Of a DNA stretch of 64,000 nt, positions 12,168-61,670 are shown piece after piece (the stretch's first letter is position 1; every line of letters starts with the position of its first letter). This DNA comes from Escherichia coli (lineage in GTDB: Bacteria > Pseudomonadota > Gammaproteobacteria > Enterobacterales > Enterobacteriaceae): the NCBI RefSeq assembly GCF_003018115.1, contig NZ_CP027457.1. The stretch is one strand, 5' to 3'. The position numbers and the translations under genes were made by a program. Below the pieces are notes generated by a model. The model ran no database searches and was not told the DNA's origin. It saw only the letters and a list, made by a program, of their open reading frames with translations.

Positions 12168-12947
12168 TTAGTAGCTGCTGGCGCTCTTACCGTCACCGTG
12201 GCCCAGCGCTTTCAACAGGCTTGCCAGCAGGCTGGAAGCACCAAAGCGGTAGTGACGCGCATCTGCCCAGTCAGCACCGAACAGTTCATCTGCGATGGCG
12301 AGATATTTCTGCGCATCTTCCGCAGTACGCACGCCGCCCGCTGGTTTGAAACCAACGGTTTTTTCTACGCCCATATCACGGATCACTTCCATCATGATGC
12401 GCGCGCTTTCCGGCGTCGCGTTCACAGCCACTTTACCGGTAGAGGTTTTGATGAAGTCCGCACCCGCTTTGATGGAGATTTCAGACGCTTTACGGATCAG
12501 CGCTTCGTCTTTCAGTTCGCCAGTTTCGATGATCACTTTCAGCAGTACATTCGCTGCCGCGCAAGCCTCTTTACAGGCTTTCACCAGGTCAAAACCAACC
12601 TGCTCGTTACCCGCCATCAGCGCGCGGTACGGGAACACCACGTCAACTTCATCAGCACCGTAGGCGATTGCCGCACGGGTTTCTGCCAGCGCGATTTCGA
12701 TGTCGTCGTTACCGTGTGGGAAGTTGGTTACCGTAGCAATACGGATTTCCGGGGTGCCCTGCTCTTTCAGTGTTTTGCGAGCAATCGGGATAAAGCGAGG
12801 ATAGATACAGATAGCGGCGGTATTGCCGACCGGGGTTTTGGCCTGATGACACAGAGCAATTACTTTCTCGTCGGTGTCGTCGTCATTCAGGGTGGTCAGG
12901 TCCATCAATTTCAGTGCACGCAGGCTGCTTGCTTTCAGATCAGTCAT
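12168..12947 (-). CDS. deoC: deoxyribose-phosphate aldolase DeoC (259 aa)
   Basis: ORF track; start at internal ATG giving [29 protein letters not shown]. Confidence 0.95.
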
Positions 12948-12991
12948 TTCATTCTCCTGGCTTGTCGCCAATAAAATTCACCTTGCGAGTT

Positions 12992-13007
12992 TGTTAGTAT
13001 TCTAACA
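12992..13007 (-). promoter_or_regulatory. DeoR operator O2 at deoP2
   Basis: 16-bp near-palindrome TGTTAGTATTCTAACA (TGTTAGAATACTAACA in deoC orientation), 45 bp upstream of the deoC ATG. Confidence 0.75.
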
Positions 13008-13018
13008 TCTACTCCGCA

Positions 13019-13040
13019 ACACACTTCGATACACATCACA
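13019..13040 (-). promoter_or_regulatory. CRP site 1 of deoP2
   Basis: minus strand reads TGTGATGTGTATCGAAGTGTGT; centre about 40 bp upstream of the expected P2 start, overlapping O2 downstream. Confidence 0.65.
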
Positions 13041-13059
13041 ATTAAGGAAATCTACTTAC

Positions 13060-13105
13060 AAGTTTGCATCACTGTAATGCGATCTGGTTCAAATAATTCA
13101 CTTTC
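13060..13105 (-). promoter_or_regulatory. CRP site 2 / CytR-binding region of deoP2 (approximate)
   Basis: minus strand AAGTGAATTATTTGAACCAGATCGCATTACAGTGATGCA lies ~53 bp upstream of CRP-1, matching the tandem-CRP/CytR layout of deoP2. Confidence 0.45.
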
Positions 13106-13204
13106 AAATGAATGCGTCAGTGGTGGCAAACGCATCAGGATCAAAGTGAACATCACGAAACTTCTTACAATGGCGCATCACCTTCGGCATAAAAGGAAAA
13201 GAAG

Positions 13205-14755
13205 ATGCCCACTTCTCATGAAAATGCACTGCAACAACGTTGCCAGCAAATTGTCACCAGCCCAGTGCTTAGCCCGGAGCAGAAGCGCCATTTTCTGGCA
13301 CTGGAAGCAGAAAACAATCTGCCTTACCCACAGCTTCCTGCCGAAGCCCGCCGCGCGCTGGATGAAGGTGTAATCTGCGATATGTTTGAAGGTCATGCGC
13401 CGTACAAACCGCGCTATGTCTTACCCGATTACGCCCGTTTTCTGGCGAACGGTTCCGAATGGCTGGAGCTGGAAGGCGCGAAAGATCTTGATGACGCACT
13501 CTCTCTGCTGACCATTCTTTACCACCACGTACCGTCGGTCACATCGATGCCGGTCTACCTGGGGCAACTGGATGCGTTGTTGCAACCGTATGTTAGAATT
13601 CTAACACAAGACGAGATCGATGTTCGAATAAAACGTTTCTGGCGTTACCTCGACAGAACCCTGCCAGACGCCTTTATGCACGCCAATATCGGCCCGTCTG
13701 ATTCGCCCATTACCCGCGCGATCTTACGTGCAGACGCAGAGTTGAAGCAGGTTTCACCGAACCTGACCTTTATCTACGATCCTGAAATCACCCCTGATGA
13801 CCTGCTGCTGGAAGTGGCGAAGAACATCTGTGAATGTAGCAAACCGCACATCGCCAACGGTCCGGTGCATGATAAAATTTTCACAAAAGGGGGCTACGGG
13901 ATTGTGAGCTGTTACAACTCACTGCCGCTGGCGGGTGGTGGCAGCACGCTGGTACGCCTTAACCTGAAAGCCATTGCCGAGCGCAGCGAATCGCTGGATG
14001 ACTTCTTTACGCGCACTCTACCGCACTACTGCCAGCAGCAGATCGCCATCATCGATGCGCGGTGTGAATTCCTCTATCAACAATCACACTTCTTTGAGAA
14101 TAGCTTCCTGGTGAAAGAAGGGCTGATTAACCCTGAACGTTTTGTGCCAATGTTTGGCATGTATGGGCTGGCGGAAGCGGTTAACTTGCTGTGTGAGAAA
14201 GAAGGGATTGCCGCGCGCTACGGTAAAGAAGCCGCCGCAAATGAAGTGGGTTATCGCATCAGCGCGCAACTGGCGGAGTTTGTCGCCAATACCCCCGTGA
14301 AATATGGCTGGCAAAAACGCGCCATGTTACACGCACAGTCGGGGATCAGTTCCGATATCGGCACCACGCCGGGCGCGCGTTTGCCGTATGGCGATGAGCC
14401 AGATCCGATCACCCATCTGCAAACTGTCGCCCCGCATCATGCTTATTATTATTCCGGCATCAGCGACATTCTGACGCTCGACGAAACCATCAAACGTAAC
14501 CCGCAGGCACTGGTACAGCTTTGCCTCGGTGCCTTTAAAGCCGGAATGCGTGAATTTACCGCCAATGTCAGCGGTAACGATCTGGTTCGCGTTACCGGTT
14601 ATATGGTGCGTTTGTCGGATTTAGAAAAATATCGCGCCGAAGGTTCACGCACCAACACCACCTGGCTGGGCGAAGAAGCCGCACGCAACACTCGTATTCT
14701 GGAACGCCAGCCGCGCGTGATAAGCCATGAACAGCAGATGCGCTTTAGTCAGTAA
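13205..14755 (+). CDS. yjjI: YjjI, glycyl-radical-enzyme family protein of unknown substrate (516 aa)
   Basis: ORF track 516 aa; C-terminal glycyl radical-type motif RVTGYMVRL; divergent from deoC. Confidence 0.9.
13591..13606 (-). promoter_or_regulatory. DeoR operator O1 at deoP1
   Basis: perfect 16-bp palindrome TGTTAGAATTCTAACA exactly 599 bp upstream of O2. Confidence 0.7.
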
Positions 14756-15590
14756 GATTATCCCCTTCTCCTGCGTTGACGGGCCAGGCAGTCGTCTGGC
14801 TCTGTTTTTGCAGGGCTGCAATCTGCGCTGCAAAAACTGTCACAATCCGTGGACGATGGGGCGTTGTAATCATTGCGGAGAGTGCGTGCCACAGTGTCCG
14901 CATCAGGCGTTGCAGATTGTTGACGGCAAAGTGGTGTGGAACGCTGTGGTTTGCGAGCAGTGTGATACCTGCCTGAAGATGTGTCCGCAACATGCCACAC
15001 CAATGGCGCAATCCATGAGCGTGGACGAAGTGCTTAGCCATGTCCGCAAAGCAGTGCTGTTTATCGAAGGGATAACGGTGAGTGGCGGTGAAGCCACGAC
15101 CCAGCTGCCGTTTGTGGTGGCGCTGTTTACTGCCATCAAAAACGATCCGCAACTGTGCCATCTCACCTGCCTCGTGGACAGTAACGGTATGTTGAGCGAA
15201 ACCGGCTGGGAAAAATTGCTCCCGGTGTGCGACGGCGCAATGCTCGATCTCAAAGCGTGGGGGAGCGAATGTCATCAACAATTAACCGGACGCGATAATC
15301 AGCAGATTAAGCGCAGCATCTGTTTGCTGGCAGAGCGCGGCAAGCTGGCGGAACTGCGTTTGCTGGTGATCCCTGGCCAGGTGGATTATTTGCAACACAT
15401 CGAAGAACTGGCGGCGTTTATCAAGGGAGTCGGCGATGTTCCGGTACGCCTGAACGCGTTTCATGCCCACGGCGTGTATGGCGAGGCGCAAAGCTGGGCG
15501 AGCGCCACGCCGGAAGACGTTGAGCCGTTGGCTGATGCGTTCCGGGAGCGCGGGGTGAGCCGGTTAATATTTCCGGCGCTGTATTTGTGA
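14727..15590 (+). CDS. yjjW: YjjW, glycyl-radical-enzyme activating enzyme (radical SAM, 287 aa)
   Basis: ORF track; CNLRCKNC (CX3CX2C) radical-SAM cluster plus two ferredoxin-like Cys clusters ([24 protein letters not shown]); overlaps yjjI by 29 bp. Confidence 0.9.
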
Positions 15591-16095
15591 CATGCCGGAT
15601 ACGGCCTACGGTTCGGCACAGACTTGTAGGCCTGATAAGACGCGTCAAGCGTCGCATCAGGCATTGTGCGCCAACTGCCGGATGCGGCGTGAACGCCTTA
15701 TCCGGCCTACGGTTCGGCACAGACTTGTAGGCATGATAAGACGCGTCAGCGTCGCATCAGGCATTGTGCGCCAACTGCCGGATGCGGCGTGAACGCCTTA
15801 TCCGGCCTACGGTTCGGCACAGACTTGTAGGCATGATAAGACGCGTCAGCGTCGCATCAGGCATTGTGCGCCAACTGCCGGATGCGGCGTGAACGCCTTA
15901 TCCGGCCTATGGTTCGGCACAGACTTGTAGGCATGATAAGACGCGTCAGTGTCGCATCAGGCATTGTGCGCCAACTGCCGGATGCGGCGTGAACGCCTTA
16001 TCCGGCCTACGGTTCGGCACAGACTTGTAGGCATGATAAGACGCGTCAAGCGTCGCATCAGGCATTATGCGCCGACTGCCGGATGCTGCCTACGA
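15591..16095. repeat. tandem REP/BIME array, five ~100-bp units
   Basis: GGTTCGGCACAGACTTGTAGGC recurs at 15610, 15711, 15811, 15911 and 16011; each unit holds two inverted REP palindromes. Confidence 0.9.
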
Positions 16096-24080: not shown

Positions 24081-24166
24081 GCGAAGGTGGCGGAATTGGT
24101 AGACGCGCTAGCTTCAGGTGTTAGTGTTCTTACGGACGTGGGGGTTCAAGTCCCCCCCTCGCACCA
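24081..24166 (+). tRNA. leuP: tRNA-Leu (anticodon CAG), variant copy of 86 nt
   Basis: same as flanking copies except C to T in the variable arm (GTGTTCTT vs GTGTCCTT) and a C-run of 7 instead of 8 at the T-stem/acceptor junction. Confidence 0.85.
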
Positions 24167-38838: not shown

Positions 38839-39285
38839 TTATTCATTATCGCCCGGGATGTCTTCTTGTCGGGAATTGCCCAGAGCAATAAATTCCTCTA
38901 ACAGATGGGTTAACTGTTGCATTTTCTCGGCAGTAAACTGAGCTTCAATCTGCCGATAGGCTTCTTCAATCTGTGTCTGGGCGCGGTTATACAGCGCCTG
39001 CCCCTCTTTGGTTAGCGAGATATAGAGCTTCCGCTGATCATTGATCGGCTTTAATCGCAACACTAAACCGTCGCGTTCCATCCGCGTGAGGATCCCGGTC
39101 AGGCTTGGGCGCAAAATGCAGGCGCGATACGCCAGATCGTGAAAATCCATTGATGGGCTTTCCGCCAGAATACGCACGATGCGCCACTGTTGCTCAGTCA
39201 AATTATGCCGTTTAACGATTGGGCGAAAATAACTCATCGCCGCTTCTCGCGCCTGGAGCAACGCAATGGTTAGTGAGTCGTGCAT
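38839..39285 (-). CDS. hpaR: MarR-family repressor HpaR of the hpa meta-cleavage operon (148 aa)
   Basis: ORF track; start at internal ATG giving MHDSLTIALLQAREAAMSYFRP; MarR winged HTH. Confidence 0.88.
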   Translation of the reverse strand: MHDSLTIALLQAREAAMSYFRPIVKRHNLTEQQWRIVRILAESPSMDFHDLAYRACILRPSLTGILTRMERDGLVLRLKPINDQRKLYISLTKEGQALYNRAQTQIEEAYRQIEAQFTAEKMQQLTHLLEEFIALGNSRQEDIPGDNE

Positions 39286-39507
39286 TATCTTTCCCCTGAA
39301 AAATTCAAAATCATTAATATAGAAACAGTTAATCGTCACGTTACCGGGACTGCGCTGTCCCTGCAATTCCTGATTTTATCAAAATTGATGATATTTTATT
39401 AACTTACTGATATTTAATATTTTATTATCTTTAAATGTAAATAGTTTGTTAATTAGATCACATTTATATCACTTACTTTTGCCAAACTACGCAATCGGGA
39501 ATAAAAG

Positions 39508-39531
39508 TAATCATTAACATATTAATGATTA
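39508..39531. promoter_or_regulatory. perfect inverted repeat in the hpaG promoter region, candidate HpaR operator
   Basis: TAATCATTAA-CATA-TTAATGATTA, 26 bp upstream of the hpaG ATG; related half-site AAAATCATTAATAT at 39307-39320 near the hpaR start. Confidence 0.5.
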
Positions 39532-39556
39532 AGATGATCGAATCCGAGGAGTGGTA

Positions 39557-40846
39557 ATGAAAGGCACTATCTTCGCCGTAGCATTGAACCATCGCAGCCA
39601 ACTTGATGCCTGGCAGGAAGCGTTCCAGCAATCTCCCTACAAAGCCCCGCCTAAAACTGCGGTCTGGTTTATTAAACCGCGCAATACGGTGATTGGTTGC
39701 GGTGAACCGATTCCCTTTCCACAGGGTGAAAAGGTACTGAGCGGTGCGACAGTTGCGCTGATTGTGGGAAAAACGGCGACGAAAGTACGTGAAGAAGATG
39801 CGGCAGAGTACATCGCCGGATATGCGCTGGCTAACGACGTCAGCCTGCCGGAAGAGAGCTTTTACCGCCCGGCAATCAAAGCAAAATGTCGTGATGGATT
39901 CTGCCCCATTGGCGAAACCGTGGCTCTCAGCAATGTCGATAATCTGACTATCTATACCGAGATCAACGGGCGTCCTGCCGATCACTGGAATACCGCCGAT
40001 TTACAACGTAACGCCGCACAGCTGCTGAGCGCCCTGAGCGAATTTGCCACGCTAAATCCAGGCGATGCCATTCTGCTCGGCACGCCACAGGCGCGCGTGG
40101 AAATACAGCCAGGCGATCGCGTGCGTATTCTCGCAGAAGGTTTCCCGCCGCTGGAAAATCCGGTAGTGGACGAACGTGAAGTGACCACGCGCAAGAGCTT
40201 CCCAACGCTGCCACACCCGCACGGTACGCTGTTTGCCCTCGGCCTGAACTACGCCGACCACGCCAGCGAACTGGAATTTAAGCCACCGGAAGAGCCGCTG
40301 GTGTTCCTGAAAGCGCCGAATACCCTCACTGGCCATAACCAGACCTCCGTGCGCCCGAACAATATTGAATACATGCACTACGAAGCGGAGCTGGTGGTAG
40401 TTATTGGCAAGCAGGCGCGTAACGTCAGCGAAGCCGATGCCATGGATTATGTCGCGGGCTACACCGTGTGTAACGACTACGCCATTCGCGACTATCTGGA
40501 AAACTACTACCGCCCTAACCTGCGGGTCAAAAGCCGCGACGGACTGACGCCGATGCTTTCAATCATCGTGCCGAAAGAGGCGATCCCGGACCCGCATAAT
40601 CTGACCCTTCGCACCTTCGTCAACGGCGAGTTACGCCAGCAAGGCACCACCGCCGATCTGATCTTCAGCGTGCCCTTCCTGATCGCCTACTTAAGCGAAT
40701 TTATGACCCTGAATCCGGGCGACATGATCGCCACCGGCACACCAAAAGGCTTATCTGACGTGGTGCCTGGCGATGAAGTAGTGGTAGAAGTAGAAGGCGT
40801 GGGCCGCCTGGTGAACCGAATTGTGAGTGAGGAAACAGCGAAATGA
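39557..40846 (+). CDS. hpaG: bifunctional 5-oxopent-3-ene-1,2,5-tricarboxylate decarboxylase / 2-hydroxyhepta-2,4-diene-1,7-dioate isomerase HpaG (429 aa)
   Basis: ORF track; ATG 39557 preceded by GAGGA; two FAH-fold repeats. Confidence 0.92.
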   Translation: MKGTIFAVALNHRSQLDAWQEAFQQSPYKAPPKTAVWFIKPRNTVIGCGEPIPFPQGEKVLSGATVALIVGKTATKVREEDAAEYIAGYALANDVSLPEESFYRPAIKAKCRDGFCPIGETVALSNVDNLTIYTEINGRPADHWNTADLQRNAAQLLSALSEFATLNPGDAILLGTPQARVEIQPGDRVRILAEGFPPLENPVVDEREVTTRKSFPTLPHPHGTLFALGLNYADHASELEFKPPEEPLVFLKAPNTLTGHNQTSVRPNNIEYMHYEAELVVVIGKQARNVSEADAMDYVAGYTVCNDYAIRDYLENYYRPNLRVKSRDGLTPMLSIIVPKEAIPDPHNLTLRTFVNGELRQQGTTADLIFSVPFLIAYLSEFMTLNPGDMIATGTPKGLSDVVPGDEVVVEVEGVGRLVNRIVSEETAK

Positions 40847-42309
40847 AAAAAGTAAATCATTGGATCAACGGCAAAAATGTTGCAGGTAACGACTACTTCC
40901 AGACCACCAATCCGGCAACGGGTGAAGTGCTGGCGGATGTGGCCTCTGGCGGTGAAGCGGAGATCAATCAGGCGGTAGCGGCAGCGAAAGAGGCGTTCCC
41001 GAAATGGGCCAATCTGCCGATGAAAGAGCGTGCGCGCCTGATGCGCCGTCTGGGCGATCTGATCGACCAGAACGTGCCTGAGATCGCCGCGATGGAAACC
41101 GCGGACACGGGCCTGCCGATCCATCAGACCAAAAATGTGTTGATCCCACGCGCTTCTCACAACTTTGAATTTTTCGCGGAAGTCTGCCAGCAGATGAACG
41201 GCAAGACCTATCCGGTTGACGACAAGATGCTCAACTACACGCTGGTGCAACCGGTAGGCGTTTGTGCGCTGGTGTCACCGTGGAACGTGCCGTTTATGAC
41301 CGCCACCTGGAAGGTCGCGCCGTGTCTTGCGCTGGGCAATACCGCGGTGCTGAAGATGTCGGAACTCTCCCCGCTGACCGCTGACCGCCTGGGTGAGCTG
41401 GCGCTGGAAGCCGGTATTCCGGCGGGCGTGCTGAACGTGGTACAGGGCTACGGCGCAACCGCAGGGGATGCGCTGGTTCGTCATCATGACGTACGTGCCG
41501 TGTCGTTCACCGGCGGTACGGCCACCGGGCGCAACATCATGAAAAACGCCGGGCTGAAAAAATACTCCATGGAACTGGGCGGTAAATCGCCGGTGCTGAT
41601 TTTTGAAGATGCCGATATTGAACGCGCGCTGGACGCTGCCCTGTTCACCATCTTCTCAATCAACGGCGAACGCTGCACCGCCGGTTCGCGCATTTTTATT
41701 CAACAGAGCATCTATCCAGAATTCGTTAAACGCTTTGCCGAACGCGCCAACCGTCTGCGCGTGGGCGATCCGACCGATCCGAATACCCAGGTTGGGGCGC
41801 TTATCAGCCAGCAGCACTGGGAAAAAGTCTCCGGCTATATCCGTCTCGGCATTGAAGAAGGCGCAACCCTGCTGGCGGGCGGCCCGGATAAACCGTCCGA
41901 CCTGCCTGCGCACCTGAAAGGCGGCAACTTCCTGCGCCCAACCGTGCTGGCAGACGTTGATAACCGTATGCGAGTCGCCCAGGAAGAGATTTTCGGGCCG
42001 GTCGCCTGCCTGCTGCCGTTTAAAGACGAAGCCGAAGGCTTACGTCTGGCAAACGACGTGGAGTACGGCCTCGCGTCGTACATCTGGACGCAGGATGTCA
42101 GCAAAGTGTTACGCCTGGCGCGTGGCATTGAAGCTGGCATGGTGTTCGTCAACACCCAGAACGTGCGTGACCTGCGCCAGCCATTTGGCGGCGTAAAAGC
42201 CTCCGGCACCGGGCGTGAAGGCGGTGAGTACAGCTTCGAAGTGTTCGCGGAAATGAAGAACGTCTGCATTTCCATGGGCGACCATCCAATTCCGAAATGG
42301 GGAGTCTGA
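40843..42309 (+). CDS. hpaE: 5-carboxymethyl-2-hydroxymuconate semialdehyde dehydrogenase HpaE (488 aa)
   Basis: ORF track; aldehyde dehydrogenase active-site region ERCTAGSR; ATGA overlap with hpaG. Confidence 0.93.
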   Translation: MKKVNHWINGKNVAGNDYFQTTNPATGEVLADVASGGEAEINQAVAAAKEAFPKWANLPMKERARLMRRLGDLIDQNVPEIAAMETADTGLPIHQTKNVLIPRASHNFEFFAEVCQQMNGKTYPVDDKMLNYTLVQPVGVCALVSPWNVPFMTATWKVAPCLALGNTAVLKMSELSPLTADRLGELALEAGIPAGVLNVVQGYGATAGDALVRHHDVRAVSFTGGTATGRNIMKNAGLKKYSMELGGKSPVLIFEDADIERALDAALFTIFSINGERCTAGSRIFIQQSIYPEFVKRFAERANRLRVGDPTDPNTQVGALISQQHWEKVSGYIRLGIEEGATLLAGGPDKPSDLPAHLKGGNFLRPTVLADVDNRMRVAQEEIFGPVACLLPFKDEAEGLRLANDVEYGLASYIWTQDVSKVLRLARGIEAGMVFVNTQNVRDLRQPFGGVKASGTGREGGEYSFEVFAEMKNVCISMGDHPIPKWGV

Positions 42310-42310
42310 T

Positions 42311-43162
42311 ATGGGTAAGTTAGCGTTAGCCGCCAAGATCACGCACGTACCGTCGATGTATCTCTCTGAACTGCCAGGGAAAAACCACGGTTGCCGCCAG
42401 GGCGCGATCGACGGGCATAAAGAGATCAGCAAGCGTTGCCGGGAAATGGGCGTCGATACCATTATCGTTTTCGATACCCACTGGCTGGTCAACAGTGCTT
42501 ATCACATCAACTGTGCAGACCATTTTGAAGGCGTCTACACCAGCAACGAGCTGCCGCATTTTATCCGCGATATGACCTACAACTACGAGGGCAACCCGGA
42601 GTTGGGGCAGCTTATTGCCGATGAAGCCTTAAAGCTCGGCGTGCGGGCAAAAGCGCACAACATTCCCAGCCTGAAACTGGAATACGGCACGCTGGTGCCA
42701 ATGCGCTACATGAATGAAGACAAGCACTTCAAAGTGGTTTCCATTTCAGCTTTCTGCACTGTTCACGATTTTGCCGACAGCCGCAAGCTGGGCGAGGCTA
42801 TTCTGAAAGCGATCGAACAGTACGACGGCACCGTGGCGGTCCTTGCCAGCGGTTCGTTATCGCACCGCTTTATTGACGATCAGCGAGCGGAAGAAGGGAT
42901 GAACAGCTACACCCGCGAGTTCGACCGCCAGATGGACGAGCGCGTGGTGAAGCTGTGGCGCGAAGGCCAGTTCAACGAGTTCTGCAATATGCTGCCGGAG
43001 TATGCCGACTACTGCTACGGCGAAGGCAATATGCACGACACGGTGATGCTGCTGGGGATGCTCGGCTGGGATAAATACGACGGCAAGGTGGAGTTTATCA
43101 CCGAGCTATTCCCAAGCTCTGGCACCGGTCAGGTTAACGCTGTTTTCCCGCTTCCCGCGTAA
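42311..43162 (+). CDS. hpaD: 3,4-dihydroxyphenylacetate 2,3-dioxygenase HpaD (283 aa)
   Basis: ORF track 283 aa; position within the hpa operon. Confidence 0.92.
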   Translation: MGKLALAAKITHVPSMYLSELPGKNHGCRQGAIDGHKEISKRCREMGVDTIIVFDTHWLVNSAYHINCADHFEGVYTSNELPHFIRDMTYNYEGNPELGQLIADEALKLGVRAKAHNIPSLKLEYGTLVPMRYMNEDKHFKVVSISAFCTVHDFADSRKLGEAILKAIEQYDGTVAVLASGSLSHRFIDDQRAEEGMNSYTREFDRQMDERVVKLWREGQFNEFCNMLPEYADYCYGEGNMHDTVMLLGMLGWDKYDGKVEFITELFPSSGTGQVNAVFPLPA

Positions 43163-43171
43163 GGACGTTTT

Positions 43172-43552
43172 ATGCCGCACTTTATCGTGGAATGTACTGA
43201 AAATATTCGTGAAGAAGCCCGCTTACCTGAGCTGTTTGCCAGTGTTAACACTGCACTGGCGGCAACGGGGATTTTTCCGCTTGGGGGAATACGTAGCCGG
43301 GCGCACTGGATCGATACCTGGCAAATGGCTGATGGCAAGCACGATTACGCCTTTGTGCATATGACGCTAAAAATCGGCAGCGGACGCAGTCTGGAAAGCC
43401 GTCAGGAAGTAGGCGAAATGCTGTTTGATCTGATTAAAACGCACTTCGCCTCACTGATGGAGAGCCGTTACCTGGCGCTTTCATTTGAGATTGCAGAGCT
43501 GCACCCGACGTTGAATTTCAAACAGAACAACGTACACGCGTTGTTTAAATAA
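43172..43552 (+). CDS. hpaF: 5-carboxymethyl-2-hydroxymuconate isomerase HpaF (126 aa)
   Basis: ORF track 126 aa, starts MPHFIVECT. Confidence 0.9.
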
Positions 43553-43619
43553 ATTTGCACCAGCTTCCAGGCCGGATGATAAGGCGCAGCCGCATCCGGC
43601 AATGCCACAGGATATCGCT

Positions 43620-44423
43620 ATGTTCGATAAACACACCCACACCCTGATCGCCCAGCGTCTGGATCAGGCAGAAAAACAGCGCGAACAGATCCGCGCGATC
43701 TCGCTGGATTACCCGGAGATCACCATCGAAGACGCTTACGCGGTGCAGCGCGAATGGGTTCGCCTGAAAATAGCCGAAGGCCGTACGCTGAAAGGCCACA
43801 AAATCGGACTGACCTCGAAAGCGATGCAGGCCAGCTCACAGATCAGCGAACCAGATTACGGTGCATTGCTGGACGACATGTTCTTCCACGATGGCAGCGA
43901 TATCCCGACCGATCGCTTTATCGTACCGCGCATTGAAGTGGAGCTGGCTTTTGTGCTGGCAAAACCGCTGCGTGGGCCAAACTGCACGCTGTTCGACGTT
44001 TACAACGCCACGGACTATGTGATCCCGGCGCTGGAGCTGATCGACGCTCGCTGCCACAACATCGATCCGGAAACTCAGCGCCCGCGCAAAGTGTTCGACA
44101 CCATTTCTGATAACGCCGCCAACGCCGGAGTGATCCTCGGAGGTCGTCCGATCAAACCAGACGAACTGGATCTGCGTTGGATCTCCGCCCTCATGTATCG
44201 CAATGGCGTGATTGAAGAAACCGGCGTCGCCGCTGGCGTGCTGAATCACCCGGCAAACGGCGTGGCCTGGCTGGCGAACAAACTCGCACCGTATGACGTA
44301 CAACTGGAAGCCGGGCAAATCATTCTCGGTGGTTCGTTTACCCGCCCGGTTCCGGCGCGTAAGGGCGACACCTTCCACGTCGATTACGGCAACATGGGCT
44401 CCATTAGCTGCCGCTTTGTTTAA
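43620..44423 (+). CDS. hpaH: 2-oxo-hept-4-ene-1,7-dioate hydratase HpaH (267 aa)
   Basis: ORF track; start at internal ATG giving [20 protein letters not shown]. Confidence 0.9.
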
Positions 44424-44433
44424 GGAGAGAACG

Positions 44434-45222
44434 ATGGAAAACAGTTTTAAAGCGGCGCTGAAAGCAGGCCGTCCGCAGATTGGATTATGGCTGGGGCTGA
44501 GCAGCAGCTACAGCGCGGAGTTACTGGCCGGAGCAGGATTCGACTGGTTGTTGATCGACGGTGAGCACGCACCGAACAACGTACAAACCGTGCTCACCCA
44601 ACTACAGGCGATTGCGCCCTACCCCAGCCAGCCGGTGGTACGTCCGTCGTGGAACGATCCGGTGCAAATCAAACAACTGCTGGATGTCGGCACACAAACC
44701 TTACTGGTGCCGATGGTTCAAAACGCTGACGAAGCCCGTGAAGCGGTACGCGCCACCCGTTATCCCCCCGCCGGTATTCGCGGTGTGGGCAGTGCGCTGG
44801 CTCGCGCCTCGCGCTGGAATCGCATTCCTGATTACCTGCAAAAAGCCAACGATCAAATGTGCGTGCTGGTGCAGATCGAAACGCGTGAGGCAATGAAGAA
44901 CTTACCGCAGATTCTGGACGTGGAAGGGGTCGACGGCGTGTTTATCGGCCCGGCGGATCTGAGCGCCGATATGGGTTATGCCGGTAATCCGCAGCACCCG
45001 GAAGTACAGGTCGCCATTGAGCAGGCGATCGTGCAGATCCGCGAAGCGGGTAAGGCGCCGGGGATCCTGATCGCCAATGAGCAACTGGCAAAACGCTATC
45101 TGGAACTGGGCGCGCTGTTTGTCGCCGTCGGCGTTGACACCACCCTGCTCGCCCGCGCCGCCGAAGCGCTGGCAGCACGGTTTGGCGCGCAGGCTACAGC
45201 GATTAAGCCCGGCGTGTATTAA
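44434..45222 (+). CDS. hpaI: 4-hydroxy-2-oxo-heptane-1,7-dioate aldolase HpaI (262 aa)
   Basis: ORF track; start at internal ATG giving [22 protein letters not shown], preceded by AAGGAGAG. Confidence 0.9.
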
Positions 45223-45350
45223 TGCCGGATGCGCTGCGCTTATCCGGCCTACACTCGCACCAAATCGTAGGCCTGATAAGGCGTTACGCCGCATCAGGCA
45301 AAAAGCCGTACCAAATCGCGGACCGGATAAGGCGTTTACGCCGCATCCGC
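45223..45350. repeat. REP cluster between hpaI and hpaX
   Basis: three GCCGGATGCG...CTTATCCGGCCTAC-type palindromic units. Confidence 0.8.
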
Positions 45351-45396
45351 CATAAACCTTGTCGTACCCTACAAAAATCCCATTAGAGGAAGAAAA

Positions 45397-46773
45397 ATGA
45401 GCGACACCTCACCTGCCATACCGGAGAGTATCGATCCGGCGAATCAGCATAAAGCGCTGACTGCCGGACAACAGGCGGTTATTAAGAAGTTGTTTCGCCG
45501 CCTGATCGTCTTTCTGTTCGTGCTGTTTATCTTCTCGTTCCTTGATCGCATCAACATCGGCTTTGCCGGACTCACGATGGGACGCGACCTCGGTCTGAGC
45601 GCCACCATGTTTGGCCTCGCCACCACCCTGTTCTACGCCGCTTATGTCATCTTCGGCATTCCCAGCAACATTATGCTGAGTATTGTCGGTGCGCGACGCT
45701 GGATCGCCACCATCATGGTACTTTGGGGCATCGCCTCTACTGCCACCATGTTTGCCACTGGCCCCACCAGCTTGTACGTACTGCGTATACTGGTTGGCAT
45801 TACCGAAGCCGGCTTTCTGCCCGGTATTCTGCTCTATTTAACCTTCTGGTTTCCGGCCTACTTCCGCGCCCGTGCCAACGCCTTGTTTATGGTGGCAATG
45901 CCGGTAACGACAGCGTTGGGATCGATCGTTTCCGGCTACATTTTGTCGCTGGATGGCGTAATGGCATTAAAAGGCTGGCAGTGGCTGTTTTTGCTGGAAG
46001 GCTTCCCGTCGGTATTACTCGGCGTCATGGTGTGGTTCTGGCTTGATGACTCACCGGACAAAGCTAAGTGGCTGACGAAAGAAGACAAAAAATGCCTGCA
46101 AGAGATGATGGATAACGATCGTCTGACGCTGGTTCAGCCAGAGGGAGCCATCAGCCACCATGCCATGCAACAACGCAGCATGTGGCGGGAGATCTTCACT
46201 CCGGTGGTGATGATGTATACCCTGGCGTATTTCTGCCTGACCAACACACTTAGTGCGATCAGCATCTGGACACCGCAGATCCTGCAAAGCTTTAATCAGG
46301 GCAGCAGTAATATCACCATCGGCCTGCTGGCCGCCGTACCGCAGATTTGTACCATTCTCGGGATGATCTACTGGAGCCGTCACTCAGATCGCCGCCAGGA
46401 ACGAAGGCATCACACCGCCCTTCCTTATTTGTTCGCTGCCGCTGGTTGGTTACTGGCTTCGGCAACTGATCACAACATGATCCAGATGCTGGGGATCATT
46501 ATGGCTTCGACCGGATCATTCAGCGCAATGGCGATTTTCTGGACAACACCGGATCAGTCCATCAGCCTGCGGGCACGAGCGATCGGTATTGCGGTGATCA
46601 ACGCCACTGGCAACATTGGTTCAGCATTAAGTCCGTTTATGATCGGCTGGTTGAAAGATCTGACCGGCAGCTTTAACAGTGGATTGTGGTTTGTTGCCGC
46701 GCTGCTGGTGATTGGTGCAGGGATTATCTGGGCAATTCCAATGCAGTCCTCCCGTCCGCGAGCGACCCCGTAA
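45397..46773 (+). CDS. hpaX: MFS 4-hydroxyphenylacetate transporter HpaX (458 aa)
   Basis: ORF track 458 aa; 12-TM MFS pattern. Confidence 0.92.
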   Translation: MSDTSPAIPESIDPANQHKALTAGQQAVIKKLFRRLIVFLFVLFIFSFLDRINIGFAGLTMGRDLGLSATMFGLATTLFYAAYVIFGIPSNIMLSIVGARRWIATIMVLWGIASTATMFATGPTSLYVLRILVGITEAGFLPGILLYLTFWFPAYFRARANALFMVAMPVTTALGSIVSGYILSLDGVMALKGWQWLFLLEGFPSVLLGVMVWFWLDDSPDKAKWLTKEDKKCLQEMMDNDRLTLVQPEGAISHHAMQQRSMWREIFTPVVMMYTLAYFCLTNTLSAISIWTPQILQSFNQGSSNITIGLLAAVPQICTILGMIYWSRHSDRRQERRHHTALPYLFAAAGWLLASATDHNMIQMLGIIMASTGSFSAMAIFWTTPDQSISLRARAIGIAVINATGNIGSALSPFMIGWLKDLTGSFNSGLWFVAALLVIGAGIIWAIPMQSSRPRATP

Positions 46774-46782
46774 GGAACGACG

Positions 46783-47673
46783 ATGTGTGACCGTCAGATT
46801 GCCAATATTGATATCAGCAAAGAGTACGATGAAAGCCTGGGCACGGACGATGTGCATTATCAGTCGTTCGCCCGCATGGCGGCATTTTTTGGCCGCCATA
46901 TGCTGCCACATCGCCACGAACAGTACTTTCAGATGCATTTCCTCAATAGCGGACAGATTGAGCTACAGCTTGACGATCATCGCTACTCGGTGGAAGCGCC
47001 CCTGTTTGTCCTGACGCCGCCGTCAGTACCTCATGCGTTTATTACGGAGTCTGACGCCGACGGTCATGTGTTGACGGTACGGGAAGATCTGATCTGGCCC
47101 CTGCTGGAAGTTCTTTATCCAGGCACTCGGGAAACCTTCGGCCTGCCGGGGATTTGCCTGTCACTGGCAGATAAACCCGACGAACTGGCGGCGCTGGAAC
47201 ACTATTGGCAACTGATAGAGCGGGAATCGGTGGAACAACTGCCTGGACGGGAACACACCCTGACGTTACTGGCACAGGCAGTGTTCACCCTACTGCTGCG
47301 TAACGCAAAACTCGACGATCATGCCGCCAGCGGAATGCGCGGAGAATTAAAACTGTTCCAGCGTTTTCATATGCTGATTGAAAGCCATTTTCATCAGCAC
47401 TGGACAGTACCAGATTACGCTAACGAACTGCATATCACCGAATCACGCCTCACGGACATCTGCCGCCGCTTTGCCAACCGTCCGCCAAAACGGTTGATTT
47501 TCGACAGGCAGCTGCGAGAAGCCAAACGGCTGCTGCTGTTTTCTGATAACGCCGTGAACAATATTGCCTGGCAACTCGGTTTTAAGGATCCGGCTTATTT
47601 TGCGCGCTTTTTTAATCGCTTAGTCGGTTGCTCGCCCAGTGCTTATCGCGCCAAAAAAGTACCTGTGACGTGA
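46783..47673 (+). CDS. hpaA: AraC/XylS-family activator HpaA of hpaBC (296 aa)
   Basis: ORF track; cupin-like N-terminal domain, C-terminal AraC HTH. Confidence 0.9.
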   Translation: MCDRQIANIDISKEYDESLGTDDVHYQSFARMAAFFGRHMLPHRHEQYFQMHFLNSGQIELQLDDHRYSVEAPLFVLTPPSVPHAFITESDADGHVLTVREDLIWPLLEVLYPGTRETFGLPGICLSLADKPDELAALEHYWQLIERESVEQLPGREHTLTLLAQAVFTLLLRNAKLDDHAASGMRGELKLFQRFHMLIESHFHQHWTVPDYANELHITESRLTDICRRFANRPPKRLIFDRQLREAKRLLLFSDNAVNNIAWQLGFKDPAYFARFFNRLVGCSPSAYRAKKVPVT

Positions 47674-47923
47674 AAATCCCTTAGCCTTAACGGGAAACCA
47701 GGCATCACCTGCTATTCCCCTTTCTCCGCCTGGAGCAAGGGGATTTAGTAACGTTAAAAATCGCTAAAAGCGACCTCGATCACAAAACCGTACCCGACCT
47801 GAAAAGTACCAGCCATTGTCCCAAAAGTCTCTTCCCGTAATCGCCCCTGCAAGCTTCAATTGAATAACAAAAACAACACACAAAATTAACAATCGTATTC
47901 CGATTAATACTGTAGAGGTCGAC

Positions 47924-49486
47924 ATGAAACCAGAAGATTTCCGCGCCAGTACCCAACGTCCGTTCACCGGGGAAGAGTATCTGAAAAGCCTGCAGGATGG
48001 TCGCGAGATCTATATCTACGGCGAGAGAGTGAAAGACGTCACCACTCATCCGGCATTTCGTAATGCGGCAGCGTCTGTTGCCCAACTGTACGACGCGCTA
48101 CACAAACCGGAGATGCAGGACTCTCTGTGTTGGAACACCGACACCGGCAGCGGCGGCTATACCCATAAATTCTTCCGCGTGGCGAAAAGTGCCGACGACC
48201 TGCGCCAGCAACGCGATGCCATCGCTGAGTGGTCACGCCTGAGCTATGGCTGGATGGGCCGTACCCCAGACTACAAAGCTGCTTTCGGTTGCGCACTGGG
48301 CGCGAATCCGGGCTTTTACGGTCAGTTCGAGCAGAACGCCCGTAACTGGTATACCCGTATTCAGGAAACTGGCCTCTACTTTAACCACGCGATTGTTAAC
48401 CCACCGATCGATCGTCATTTGCCGACCGATAAAGTGAAAGACGTTTACATCAAGCTGGAAAAAGAGACTGACGCCGGGATTATCGTCAGCGGTGCGAAAG
48501 TGGTTGCCACCAACTCGGCGCTGACTCACTACAACATGATTGGTTTCGGCTCGGCACAAGTGATGGGCGAAAACCCGGACTTCGCACTGATGTTCGTTGC
48601 GCCAATGGATGCCGATGGCGTGAAATTAATCTCCCGCGCCTCTTATGAGATGGTCGCGGGTGCTACCGGCTCGCCGTACGACTACCCGCTCTCCAGCCGC
48701 TTCGATGAGAACGATGCGATCCTGGTGATGGATAACGTACTGATCCCTTGGGAAAACGTGCTGATCTACCGCGATTTCGATCGCTGCCGTCGCTGGACGA
48801 TGGAAGGCGGTTTTGCCCGTATGTATCCGCTGCAAGCCTGTGTGCGCCTGGCAGTGAAACTCGACTTCATCACGGCACTGCTGAAAAAATCACTCGAATG
48901 TACCGGCACCCTGGAGTTCCGTGGTGTGCAGGCCGATCTCGGTGAAGTGGTGGCGTGGCGCAACACCTTCTGGGCATTGAGTGACTCGATGTGTTCAGAA
49001 GCGACGCCGTGGGTCAACGGGGCTTATTTACCGGATCATGCTGCACTGCAAACCTATCGCGTACTGGCACCAATGGCCTACGCGAAGATCAAAAACATTA
49101 TCGAACGCAACGTTACCAGTGGCCTGATCTATCTCCCTTCCAGTGCCCGTGACCTGAACAATCCGCAGATCGACCAGTATCTGGCGAAGTATGTGCGCGG
49201 TTCGAACGGTATGGATCACGTCCAGCGCATCAAGATCCTCAAACTGATGTGGGATGCCATTGGCAGCGAATTTGGTGGTCGTCACGAGCTGTATGAAATC
49301 AACTACTCCGGTAGCCAGGATGAGATTCGCCTGCAATGTCTGCGCCAGGCACAAAGCTCCGGCAATATGGACAAGATGATGGCGATGGTTGATCGCTGCC
49401 TGTCGGAATACGACCAGAACGGCTGGACTGTGCCGCACCTGCACAACAACGACGATATCAACATGCTGGATAAGCTGCTGAAATAA
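47924..49486 (+). CDS. hpaB: 4-hydroxyphenylacetate 3-monooxygenase, oxygenase component HpaB (520 aa)
   Basis: ORF track 520 aa. Confidence 0.94.
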   Translation: MKPEDFRASTQRPFTGEEYLKSLQDGREIYIYGERVKDVTTHPAFRNAAASVAQLYDALHKPEMQDSLCWNTDTGSGGYTHKFFRVAKSADDLRQQRDAIAEWSRLSYGWMGRTPDYKAAFGCALGANPGFYGQFEQNARNWYTRIQETGLYFNHAIVNPPIDRHLPTDKVKDVYIKLEKETDAGIIVSGAKVVATNSALTHYNMIGFGSAQVMGENPDFALMFVAPMDADGVKLISRASYEMVAGATGSPYDYPLSSRFDENDAILVMDNVLIPWENVLIYRDFDRCRRWTMEGGFARMYPLQACVRLAVKLDFITALLKKSLECTGTLEFRGVQADLGEVVAWRNTFWALSDSMCSEATPWVNGAYLPDHAALQTYRVLAPMAYAKIKNIIERNVTSGLIYLPSSARDLNNPQIDQYLAKYVRGSNGMDHVQRIKILKLMWDAIGSEFGGRHELYEINYSGSQDEIRLQCLRQAQSSGNMDKMMAMVDRCLSEYDQNGWTVPHLHNNDDINMLDKLLK

Positions 49487-49503
49487 CGCAGCAGGAGGTT
49501 AAG

Positions 49504-50016
49504 ATGCAATTAGATGAACAACGCCTGCGCTTTCGTGACGCGATGGCCAGCCTGTCGGCAGCGGTAAATATTATCACCACCGAGGGCGACGCCGGACAAT
49601 GCGGGATTACGGCAACGGCCGTCTGCTCGGTCACGGATACCCCTCCGTCGCTGATGGTGTGCATTAACGCCAACAGTGCGATGAACCCGGTTTTTCAGGG
49701 CAACGGCAAGTTGTGCGTCAACGTCCTCAACCATGAGCAGGAACTGATGGCGCGCCACTTCGCGGGCATGACGGGCATGGCGATGGAAGAGCGTTTTAGC
49801 CTCTCGTGCTGGCAAAAAGGTCCGCTGGCGCAGCCGGTGCTAAAAGGTTCGCTGGCCAGTCTTGAAGGTGAGATCCGCGATGTGCAGGCGATTGGCACAC
49901 ATCTGGTGTATCTGGTGGAGATTAAAAACATCATCCTCAGTGCAGAAGGTCACGGACTTATTTACTTTAAACGCCGTTTCCATCCGGTGATGCTGGAAAT
50001 GGAAGCTGCGATTTAA
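49504..50016 (+). CDS. hpaC: 4-hydroxyphenylacetate 3-monooxygenase, flavin reductase component HpaC (170 aa)
   Basis: ORF track 170 aa; 18 bp after hpaB. Confidence 0.93.
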   Translation: MQLDEQRLRFRDAMASLSAAVNIITTEGDAGQCGITATAVCSVTDTPPSLMVCINANSAMNPVFQGNGKLCVNVLNHEQELMARHFAGMTGMAMEERFSLSCWQKGPLAQPVLKGSLASLEGEIRDVQAIGTHLVYLVEIKNIILSAEGHGLIYFKRRFHPVMLEMEAAI

Positions 50017-61582: not shown

Positions 61583-61589
61583 ATTTAGC

Positions 61590-61670
61590 GCGGTGCGGAT
61601 GTGCGCCAACACACCCGCACCGCTCATCACAATCACTATTTATGGAGAATAGTAATCATGACTGACACGC
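61590..61670 (-). ncRNA. symR: SymR antisense sRNA overlapping the symE 5' UTR and start codon (boundaries approximate)
   Basis: position opposite the symE translation initiation region; 9-bp-stem hairpin GCGGTGCGG / CCGCACCGC at 61590-61623; minus-strand TAGAAT-like -10 at 61671-61676. Ends are inferred, not read directly. Confidence 0.3.

Follow-up and report, generated by a model that had tools for sequence, protein, structure and literature searches.

The promoter deoP1 and the DeoR operators O1 and OE of the deoCABD operon are located within the coding region of yjjI in Escherichia coli

The 64,000-nucleotide stretch of E. coli DNA analysed here (the window) very probably contains the classical E. 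coli deoCABD control region, most of which lies within the divergent gene yjjI. Promoter P1, operator O1, a conserved block upstream of P1 and the operator OE are dual-use DNA that is also part of yjjI codons 129-227. As judged from the conservation patterns described below, this regulatory role constrains the coding of yjjI, with synonymous positions as well as rare codons locked in place. The deo looping system is already known; the extent of codon freezing in yjjI is the new detail. Coordinates of all features are given in Table 1.

Table 1 Features of the deo-yjjI region. Positions refer to the window; strands are indicated as + or −.
Feature	Position	Strand	Remarks
deoC, first gene of deoCABD	12168..12947	−	Pfam DeoC E=5e-49; RefSeq annotation deoC
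DeoR operator O2	12992..13007	−	TGTTAGAATACTAACA on the deo strand; identical to published O2
deoP2 CRP site 1	13025..13040	−	CRP ChIP peak site in PMC4287617; core conserved
deoP2 CRP site 2	13078..13093	−	TTTGAACCAGATCGCA on the deo strand; in conserved intergenic block
FNR half-site of the predicted yjjI promoter	13138..13145	+	GGATCAAA; invariant across 18 genera
Predicted yjjI -10 hexamer TACAAT	13167..13172	+	conserved as TACAAT or TACACT
yjjI ribosome-binding site AAGGAA and ATG	13193..13207	+	conserved in alignment
yjjI, YjjI-family glycyl radical enzyme, 516 aa	13205..14755	+	Pfam PF11230 E=2.5e-220
Predicted deoP1 leader part antisense to yjjI codons 1-129	13205..13591	−	from P1/O1 and yjjI-start geometry
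DeoR operator O1	13591..13606	−	perfect palindrome; identical to published O1
Conserved block upstream of P1	13625..13644	−	CGCCAGAAACGTTTTATTCG on the deo strand; ~-34 to -53 of P1
DeoR operator OE	13870..13885	−	TGTGAAAATTTTATCA on the deo strand; from relaxed operator search; position fits PMC8053113
yjjW, glycyl-radical activating enzyme	14727..15590	+	Pfam Radical_SAM, Fer4; overlaps yjjI end; annotated yjjW

An operator search of the window located O2 as TGTTAGTATTCTAACA and O1 as TGTTAGAATTCTAACA, with a start-to-start distance of 599 bp (13591 − 12992). Both are equal to the DeoR sites in those passages of PMC5326754 that quote the primary literature, and the distance agrees with the O1-O2 spacing in PMC3334521. 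Two claims of an earlier sequence-only reading, that two DeoR-type palindromes lie 599 bp apart and that this is the P1-P2 spacing of the deo operon, were thereby borne out. The start of O1 was measured at 386 nt past the A of the yjjI ATG, matching the roughly 390 bp previously estimated for the ORF opening at ATG 13205, and its footprint in yjjI reaches from the third base of codon 129 to codon 134. Compared with the 16-bp palindrome TGTTAGAA·T(T/A)CTAACA, O1 is exact, O2 is the published variant and OE is a variant identical to O1 at 12/16 positions. Both O1 and O2 contain TAGAAT with a preceding TGn; the predicted P2 -10 hexamer TAGAAT (13004-12999) falls within O2 and the predicted extended -10 element of P1, TGTTAGAAT (13606-13598), within O1. 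A simple sigma-70 consensus scan of the window called neither P1 nor P2, because the -35 hexamers of both are poor, and is hence uninformative for these promoters. The region is present in 5,423 of 5,426 complete genomes, and O2 is kept in the intergenic alignment. Among genera the O1-O2 spacing varies from 567 to 675 bp (mode 599-603), which rules out a strictly fixed spacing, and the cross-genus spacings gave no sign of selection for helical phase.

The third operator, OE, had been sought some 878 bp beyond O1 near position 14470, where it was not visible. It is present, although elsewhere: TGATAAAATTTTCACA, which codes for (H)DKIFT, lies 279 bp beyond O1 (13870 − 13591) and 878 bp from O2. 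We take 279 bp to be the exact OE-O1 figure of the known deo system, and this spacing was found in 76/76 deo-linked loci. With up to 4 mismatches to O1 allowed, only four sites were detected in the window, OE among them. A scan of this kind had been proposed for 14.4-14.5 kb, and no DeoR-like site within 4 mismatches of O1 was detected in the vicinity of 14470. The fourth site, at 24119, is located within a tRNA-Leu gene and was discarded as a chance match. OE has been placed ~300 bp upstream of O1 (PMC8053113), so that the 878 bp correspond to the OE-O2 distance. Some variation does occur in OE, since ETEC H10407 carries a G-to-A exchange that also changes Asp223 to Asn.

Control of deoCABD by DeoR looping was treated by Dandanell and Hammer 1985, Valentin-Hansen et al. 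1986, Dandanell et al. 1987 and Amouyal et al. 1989, all as cited in PMC8053113 and PMC5326754; the two later papers report DeoR binding and its release by deoxyribose-5-phosphate. Transferred to the window, deoCABD would be read leftward from tandem promoters P1 and P2, with P2 being CRP-activated and CytR-controlled. Multimeric DeoR would, according to the mechanism in the literature, grip two or three operators simultaneously, and the resulting DNA loops (O1-O2, 599 bp; OE-O1, 279 bp; OE-O2, 878 bp) would shut both promoters until deoxyribose-5-phosphate makes DeoR let go.

The position of the P2 start, as predicted from the -10 element, would put the centre of CRP site 1 ~40.5 bp and that of CRP site 2 ~93.5 bp upstream. 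The latter element (13078-13093) is presumably CRP site 2, in keeping with the known deoP2 architecture. PMC3454398 in part underlies this assignment. PMC4287617 assigns the yjjI/deoC CRP ChIP peak to site 1. An intragenic CRP site assigned by MEME (13529-13544) was rejected as a conserved element, as its third codon positions vary freely. Of all 16-nt windows in yjjI, the one with the lowest entropy lies in the conserved block upstream of P1 (13625-13644). The codons of this block take 4th place in third-position conservation, and the rare codons CGA141 and ATA142 are fixed. The block probably serves as an upstream promoter element or as a site for a further protein. From the geometry, the whole deoP1 leader would measure ~644 nt (13591 to 12948) and cross both the yjjI promoter and deoP2. 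A protein encoded by this leader was considered, as there is a 72-aa antisense ORF (13178-13396); of 71 lineages, 61 have stops within it and only 41 keep its ATG, so that it was rejected. The in-phase antisense frame, to which this ORF belongs, is often open by accident. Rfam indicated no known RNA family in 12900-14000.

To describe the evolutionary footprint of the sites, 76 deo-linked loci were compared, and third-position entropy was calculated for 511 six-codon windows of yjjI in 71 non-redundant deo-linked sequences. In these deo-linked genera O1 ranked 1st and OE 2nd of the 511 windows for synonymous-site conservation, with entropies of 0.049 and 0.109 against a gene mean of 1.148. O1 codes for (Y)VRILT and uses the rare codons AGA and CTA; of the 7 AGA, CTA, ATA and CGA codons that yjjI contains, 4 lie close together at codons 131-142. 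Among 17 Escherichia sequences ~170 sites are variable; O2, O1 and the P1 upstream block are free of such sites, and OE has a single one. Matches to the operators amount to 14-16 of 16 positions in the 76 deo-linked loci for O1 as well as for OE, compared to 8-10/16 and 6-7/16, respectively, in Proteus. Hafnia and Edwardsiella have weaker variants of O1 and O2 (TGTTGGAAT...), so that P1 may differ in strength there. The ranks of O1 and OE, together with the orthologues lacking both sites, indicate that they are selected as DNA elements apart from their coding function.

Outside the deo-linked loci, four Proteus loci, in which serB and smp lie upstream of yjjI, have neither O1 nor OE, and both sites are likewise missing from yjjI of Yersinia intermedia and from the metagenomic contigs L086 and L090. 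The metagenomic contig L085 has deoC adjoining yjjI and an O2-like site, but neither O1 nor OE. Adjacency to deoC as a simple cause of O1 and OE was thus rejected, as L085 shows adjacency yet lacks both.

That the palindromes are chance matches has a practically negligible probability: O1 and O2 are the sole matches within 64 kb at up to 3 mismatches, shuffled sequence contains 0.15 matches on average with two or more in 0/100 shuffles, the sites stand at distances of exactly 599 and 279 bp, and they are kept between genera. The sites might instead be kept for the YjjI protein or its mRNA rather than for DeoR binding, as they are in frame and the encoded VRILT and DKIFT are themselves conserved in Enterobacteriaceae. 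We regard this as very improbable. Where the operators are missing, the residues at these codons are different: the orthologues in Proteus, Yersinia, L085, L086 and L090 have other residues and only 3-10/16 of the bases. Both sites are located in variable, indel-prone loops of the YjjI protein family. Furthermore, the conservation reaches synonymous positions and rare codons, and O1 shares its sequence with the non-coding O2, both matching published DeoR sites. Selection on the operator DNA itself is our preferred explanation.

As to the yjjI start, the sequence-only reading had left two possibilities: either deoP1 transcription runs antisense through the yjjI start, or the true start of yjjI is further downstream. 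On several lines of sequence and binding evidence, yjjI is a real gene with a correctly annotated start. Its residues 22-504 cover profile positions 1-485 of 485 in PF11230 (a full-length match), and homologues with 34-57% identity are collinear, the alignments starting at query residues 7-23 and at residues 7-18 of the homologues. Furthermore, the FNR half-site, the -10 hexamer, the ribosome-binding site and the ATG are conserved, the ATG being the same codon in most of 80 loci. RefSeq E. coli genomes annotate yjjI with the same start as the ORF 13205-14755. A ChIP study reported activation of yjjI by FNR, with an FNR peak ~93 bp ahead of its ATG (PMC3688515), in line with the predicted FNR-type yjjI promoter in the 257-bp deoC-yjjI intergenic region. 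The putative full 14-bp FNR site would span 13131-13144 with its centre near -41.5 by the predicted geometry; of a class II FNR site TTGAT-N4-ATCAA, the ATCAA half alone is conserved. The glycine-radical motif (RVxG) is found as VRVTGYMVR at residues 461-469, with R462 and G465 invariant in distant homologues, and the pairing of yjjI with yjjW is also kept in the Proteus, Yersinia and metagenomic loci.

A misannotated yjjI with its true start downstream of O1, which would make P1 and O1 intergenic, is very improbable and contradicted by the sequence evidence. Some pipelines do call shorter YjjI proteins of 402 and 391 aa (P0111-P0113), but the 402-aa call begins at Met115 (13547), which is still upstream of O1. 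The Pfam model opens at residue 22, residues 57-130 belong to the most conserved stretches when family members of 34-56% identity are compared, and conservation by codon position (0.92, 0.95 and 0.65 for 1st, 2nd and 3rd) is the pattern of translated DNA. ATG, ribosome-binding site and promoter elements are conserved, and OE would in any case remain intragenic. The downstream-start half of the earlier alternative therefore falls away, while its antisense half stands on the geometry: with the annotated start correct and O1 and P1 inside the gene, any transcript from deoP1 must pass in antisense through the first 129 codons of yjjI, its ribosome-binding site and its promoter.

This arrangement may couple deo control to yjjI. 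DeoP1 points towards the predicted yjjI promoter, and the latter towards deoP1, at a distance of ~410 bp, so that mutual interference would be expected. The predicted yjjI promoter (~13131-13180) would be enclosed by the O1-O2 and OE-O2 loops, and bound repressor would stand in the way of polymerases transcribing yjjI; effects of this layout on yjjI regulation are a prediction. It may even be speculated that the intragenic DeoR sites and P1 mainly control yjjI, by roadblock or loop and by P1 antisense transcription or interference, with deo being secondary. The enclosing loops, the facing P1 and the conserved deoC-yjjI adjacency speak for this idea; we nevertheless consider it unlikely, as the literature gives O1 and OE measurable roles in repression of the deo promoters and L085 has adjacency yet neither O1 nor OE. 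Moreover, the literature searched contained no response of yjjI expression to DeoR or to P1 activity, nor other data tying the two together; the yjjI reports found concern FNR, anaerobiosis or co-expression with nitrogen metabolism, with DeoR and the deo promoters unmentioned.

Our preferred reading, deo control elements embedded in a real yjjI, can tentatively be extended to their origin and present use, as a possibility that we hold to be rather less than even. P1, O1 and OE would have been born within an older yjjI, on the branch that led to Enterobacteriaceae, Hafniaceae and Enterobacillus, and would have settled in two permissive protein loops, altering the coded residues. They would now link the FNR-dependent YjjI to deoxynucleoside availability: without inducer, yjjI would be subject to loops and roadblocks formed by DeoR, and with inducer to P1 antisense transcription and polymerase collision. 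As to the distribution of gene orders, L085 combines the same gene order with the O2-like site only, and lineages in which the genes are non-adjacent have none of the sites.

Known systems share parts of this arrangement. The face-to-face promoters pR and pL of coliphage 186 act by transcriptional interference; deoP1 and the predicted yjjI promoter are similarly opposed, but here the arrangement may be tolerated rather than used. The auxiliary operators O2 of lac and OI of gal are located in coding DNA, within lacZ and galE, respectively, and form loops with the main operator. The likeness is that an auxiliary operator in coding sequence loops to a promoter-proximal operator and constrains codons. 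In lac and gal, however, the gene that houses the operator is part of the regulated operon, and the operator is downstream of the promoter, whereas in deo a complete promoter and two operators lie in a different, convergently transcribed gene, which results in an antisense leader. Looping in lac has been reviewed (PMC4217526). Compared to the published deo locus, the region analysed here is the very same locus, with identical operators, spacings of 599, 279 and 878 bp and operators at the predicted -10 elements of two tandem promoters, and the deo system as such shows no difference. In the papers searched, neither its overlap with yjjI, which was annotated later, nor the evolutionary footprint of this overlap was described.

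For annotation, these results mean that deo P1, O1 and OE belong among the intragenic features of yjjI, and that intragenic ChIP peaks in yjjI are not to be dismissed or mis-assigned. Codon optimisation, deletion or tagging of yjjI would alter deo regulation; a Keio-type yjjI deletion takes out P1, O1 and OE, and the industrial 945-bp deoP1P2 expression cassette includes a 5' fragment of yjjI. The locus is a clean natural case of overlapping code, in which, over dozens of genera, two operators and a promoter keep synonymous sites as well as rare codons fixed; they have also shaped the YjjI sequence at two loops. If P1 and DeoR indeed affect yjjI, this would give a first clue, on the side of regulation, to an enzyme whose function is unknown.

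Both DeoR-type palindromes that the sequence-only reading had described 599 bp apart, O1 and O2, were recovered at that distance, and O1 starts 386 nt inside the yjjI ORF, close to the 390 bp estimated there. They are the only matches in the 64 kb at up to three mismatches; shuffled sequence gave a mean of 0.15 matches and two matches in 0/100 shuffles. Allowing up to four mismatches from O1, the window contains four sites, namely O2, O1, the operator OE and a site at 24119 in a tRNA-Leu gene. OE had been sought about 878 bp beyond O1 and not seen. It lies exactly 279 bp from O1, which we take to be the value of the deo system, and 878 bp is its distance from O2. The region is the already known deo system itself. 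As read on the deo strand, the sequences of O1 and O2 exactly equal those of the DeoR palindromes that PMC5326754 quotes from primary papers. Further papers give a deoP1-deoP2 distance of 599 bp (PMC3334521) and describe O1 and O2 at a tandem promoter pair ~600 bp apart, OE ~300 bp further upstream and loops among all DeoR sites, with O1-O2 looping estimated at ~72% in vivo (PMC8053113). DeoR binding, looping and induction by deoxyribose-5-phosphate, as well as CRP/CytR control of P2, come from the literature. The 2.7-kb query around the locus matches several ETEC chromosomes at 100% identity, at least 80% of its length is covered in 5,423 of 5,426 complete E. coli genomes, and the deoC-yjjI gap of 257 bp is the same in K-12.

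Features of the deo-yjjI region and further observations (window positions, unless a comparison contig is named)
Feature	Position	Strand	Remark
naRNA4 (RF02564), REP-type	2537-2615		fifth repeat, near nadS
Helix-turn-helix pseudogene	8244-8507		internal stop, between lplA and deoD; K-12 presumably has yjjJ here
deoC	12168-12947	-	RefSeq annotation
O2, TGTTAGTATTCTAACA	12992-13007		reads TGTTAGAATACTAACA on the deo (minus) strand
FNR half-site, GGATCAAA	13138-13145		invariant in intergenic alignment of 18 genera
TACAAT or TACACT hexamer	13167-13172		22 nt past the FNR half-site, same alignment
yjjI	13205-14755	+	RefSeq annotation
Assigned CRP site, CGTACCGTCGGTCACA	13529-13544		
O1, TGTTAGAATTCTAACA	13591-13606		perfect palindrome, same read on the deo (minus) strand
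P1 upstream block	13625-13644		
OE, TGATAAAATTTTCACA	13870-13885		found at up to 4 mismatches from O1
yjjW	14727-15590	+	RefSeq annotation
Four tandem REP-type repeats	15629-16007		match Rfam naRNA4 (RF02564), between yjjW and yjjV
hpa (4-hydroxyphenylacetate catabolism) cluster	38840-49727 and beyond		adjoins tsr; presumably absent from K-12
SymR antitoxin RNA (RF01809)	61587-61663		95 bits
NupC-family transporter, L083	5410-6687		adjoins yjjW
NupC-family transporter, L085	5427-6704		adjoins yjjW
NupC-family transporter, L090	3399-4688		adjoins yjjW

Inside both O1 and O2 lies TGTTAGAAT, a -10 element of the TGn-extended type whose hexamer is TAGAAT; this would place the start of P1 near 13591 and that of P2 near 12992. 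Relative to this predicted start, the P2 CRP sites would be centred at about -40.5 and -93.5.

The position of O1 had been explained either by deoP1 transcription running antisense through the yjjI start, or by a true yjjI start further downstream. The second option is ruled out by domain coverage, N-terminal collinearity and conserved start signals, and the annotated start is correct. Residues 22-504 match the entire 485-position YjjI-like profile (PF11230, E=2.5e-220). In full-length relatives of 34-57% identity, found among 1.84 billion representative proteins, residues 7-18 pair with residues 7-23 of the query, and several of the motifs best conserved in the family fall in residues 57-130, all upstream of O1. 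The ATG position is identical, or shifted by only a few codons, in most of 80 yjjI loci from Escherichia to Proteus, and conservation across the gene is 0.92, 0.95 and 0.65 at first, second and third codon positions. Shorter yjjI calls of 402 aa in some records start at Met115, which is still upstream of O1. The 18-genus intergenic alignment also contains an AAGGA ribosome-binding site followed by the ATG; together with the FNR half-site and the hexamer it suggests an FNR promoter geometry. Activation of yjjI by FNR and an FNR ChIP peak ~93 bp upstream of the ATG after conversion are reported in PMC3688515.

The antisense option stands on geometry. P1, O1, OE and the DNA between them fall within yjjI codons 129-227. 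From the predicted start, transcription from P1 has to traverse 387 nt of yjjI in antisense, the ribosome-binding site and promoter of yjjI, the CRP/CytR region and lastly O2 on its way to deoC, which would give a leader of ~644 nt. The predicted yjjI promoter is oriented convergently to deoP1 at a distance of ~410 bp and sits in both the O1-O2 and the OE-O2 loop. We infer that DeoR or P1 may affect yjjI.

To analyse conservation across genera, each species was represented by a single genome, and the scan yielded 80 yjjI loci. In 74 of them deoC lies divergently upstream of yjjI, two loci are truncated, and the remaining four, all Proteus, have serB and smp upstream. At homologous codons the 76 deo-linked loci match E. 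coli O1 and OE at 14-16 of 16 bases, with both operators identical in 48 of them and an O1-OE spacing of 279 bp in all. Proteus matches at only 8-10/16 bases for O1 and 6-7/16 for OE, and encodes VG(E/N/S)LT and QDAVFG versus VRILT and HDKIFT. Third-position entropy was calculated in six-codon windows over 71 sequences non-redundant at 95% identity (gene mean 1.148). The lowest of 511 values belong to O1 (codons 129-134, 0.049), OE (222-227, 0.109), the yjjW start overlap (508-513, 0.200) and the block upstream of P1 at about -34 to -53 (141-146, 0.226). Four of the seven rare codons of their kind in yjjI are AGA131, CTA133, CGA141 and ATA142. O1, OE and the upstream block are thus under purifying selection at the DNA level. 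Tolerated O1 variants change G to A or T at operator position 6, and the hexamers stay -10-like (TAAAAT, TATAAT).

No other stretch of 16-20 nt in yjjI is as conserved as the upstream block, whereas the spacer that separates it from O1 varies, as it would in a promoter. The block holds GAAACGTTTT, which is imperfectly palindromic around a CG centre and resembles PurR- or RbsR-type operators of the LacI family; just as well, the block could be a UP element of P1, rich in A/T.

Further control loci show what the sites follow. An Enterobacillus-like contig (L083) with adjacent deoC has O2, O1 and OE. A metagenomic contig of the same gene order (L085), also with adjacent deoC, has an O2-like TGTGACTATTTCAACA and two CRP sites, and no O1 (6/16) or OE (4/16) at homologous codons. 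Yersinia intermedia (L089) and two further metagenomic contigs (L086, L090), in which deoC is not adjacent, have neither O1 nor OE. Therefore, the intragenic sites track a deo control region of the P1/O1/OE type, rather than YjjI itself or adjacency alone. Both operators are located in loops that vary and carry indels when the YjjI family is aligned, which explains how the coding sequence could accommodate them. In Proteus mirabilis (L080; 2034-2732, 953-1930) yjjI directly follows serB and smp, and in E. coli deoCABD, a helix-turn-helix pseudogene and lplA lie between smp (ytjB) and yjjI; at this point the two gene orders part.

Within E. coli, a 30-bp OE probe was found exactly in 5,163 of 5,423 genomes and a 30-bp O1 probe in 4,493; about 260 genomes thus differ somewhere in the OE probe. 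Seventeen Escherichia sequences, chosen to span the range of identities, have ~170 variable sites in 12948-14000 and none in O2, O1 or the upstream block; the variants that they have in the O1 probe are all in its flanks. At 13622, a putative P1 -35 position, a G/A polymorphism switches Val140 to Ile, with G in the window and K-12 and A in 14/17 other Escherichia sequences. yjjI is annotated as frameshifted in E. coli IAI39 (L094) and AR_0085 (L101), which have no O1 or OE variants. The sole OE variant among the seventeen sequences is G13871A in ETEC H10407 (L091, 1266-1281), TGTGAAAATTTTATTA on the deo strand, which changes Asp223 to Asn.

For the same strain, a CRP ChIP-seq study reports that yjjI contains a peak at a distance of 544 bp from that of deoP2, with CGTACCGTCGGTCACA as the assigned site (PMC4287617). 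In H10407 this site lies 450-503 bp from the two CRP sites and O1 513-566 bp. Third codon positions also vary freely in the assigned site. The peak may therefore represent O1 DNA cross-linked to CRP through a DeoR loop.

A NupC-family nucleoside transporter adjoins yjjW in three non-E. coli lineages, and the E. coli neighbours are deoCABD and the TatD-family hydrolase gene yjjV, with the nucleotidase gene yjjG 6 kb away. These neighbours hint that YjjI may act on a nucleoside-related substrate.

EcoCyc or RegulonDB probably display the overlap of yjjI with the deo sites, which was not found discussed in the titles, abstracts and text passages on yjjI, yjjW or DUF3029 that were covered. The closest analogues are operators in coding DNA, lac O2 in lacZ and gal OI in galE, whereas deo has an entire promoter along with two operators inside another gene, transcribed convergently with this promoter. 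What is added here to the known system is the quantified constraint on these sites and their lineage pattern.
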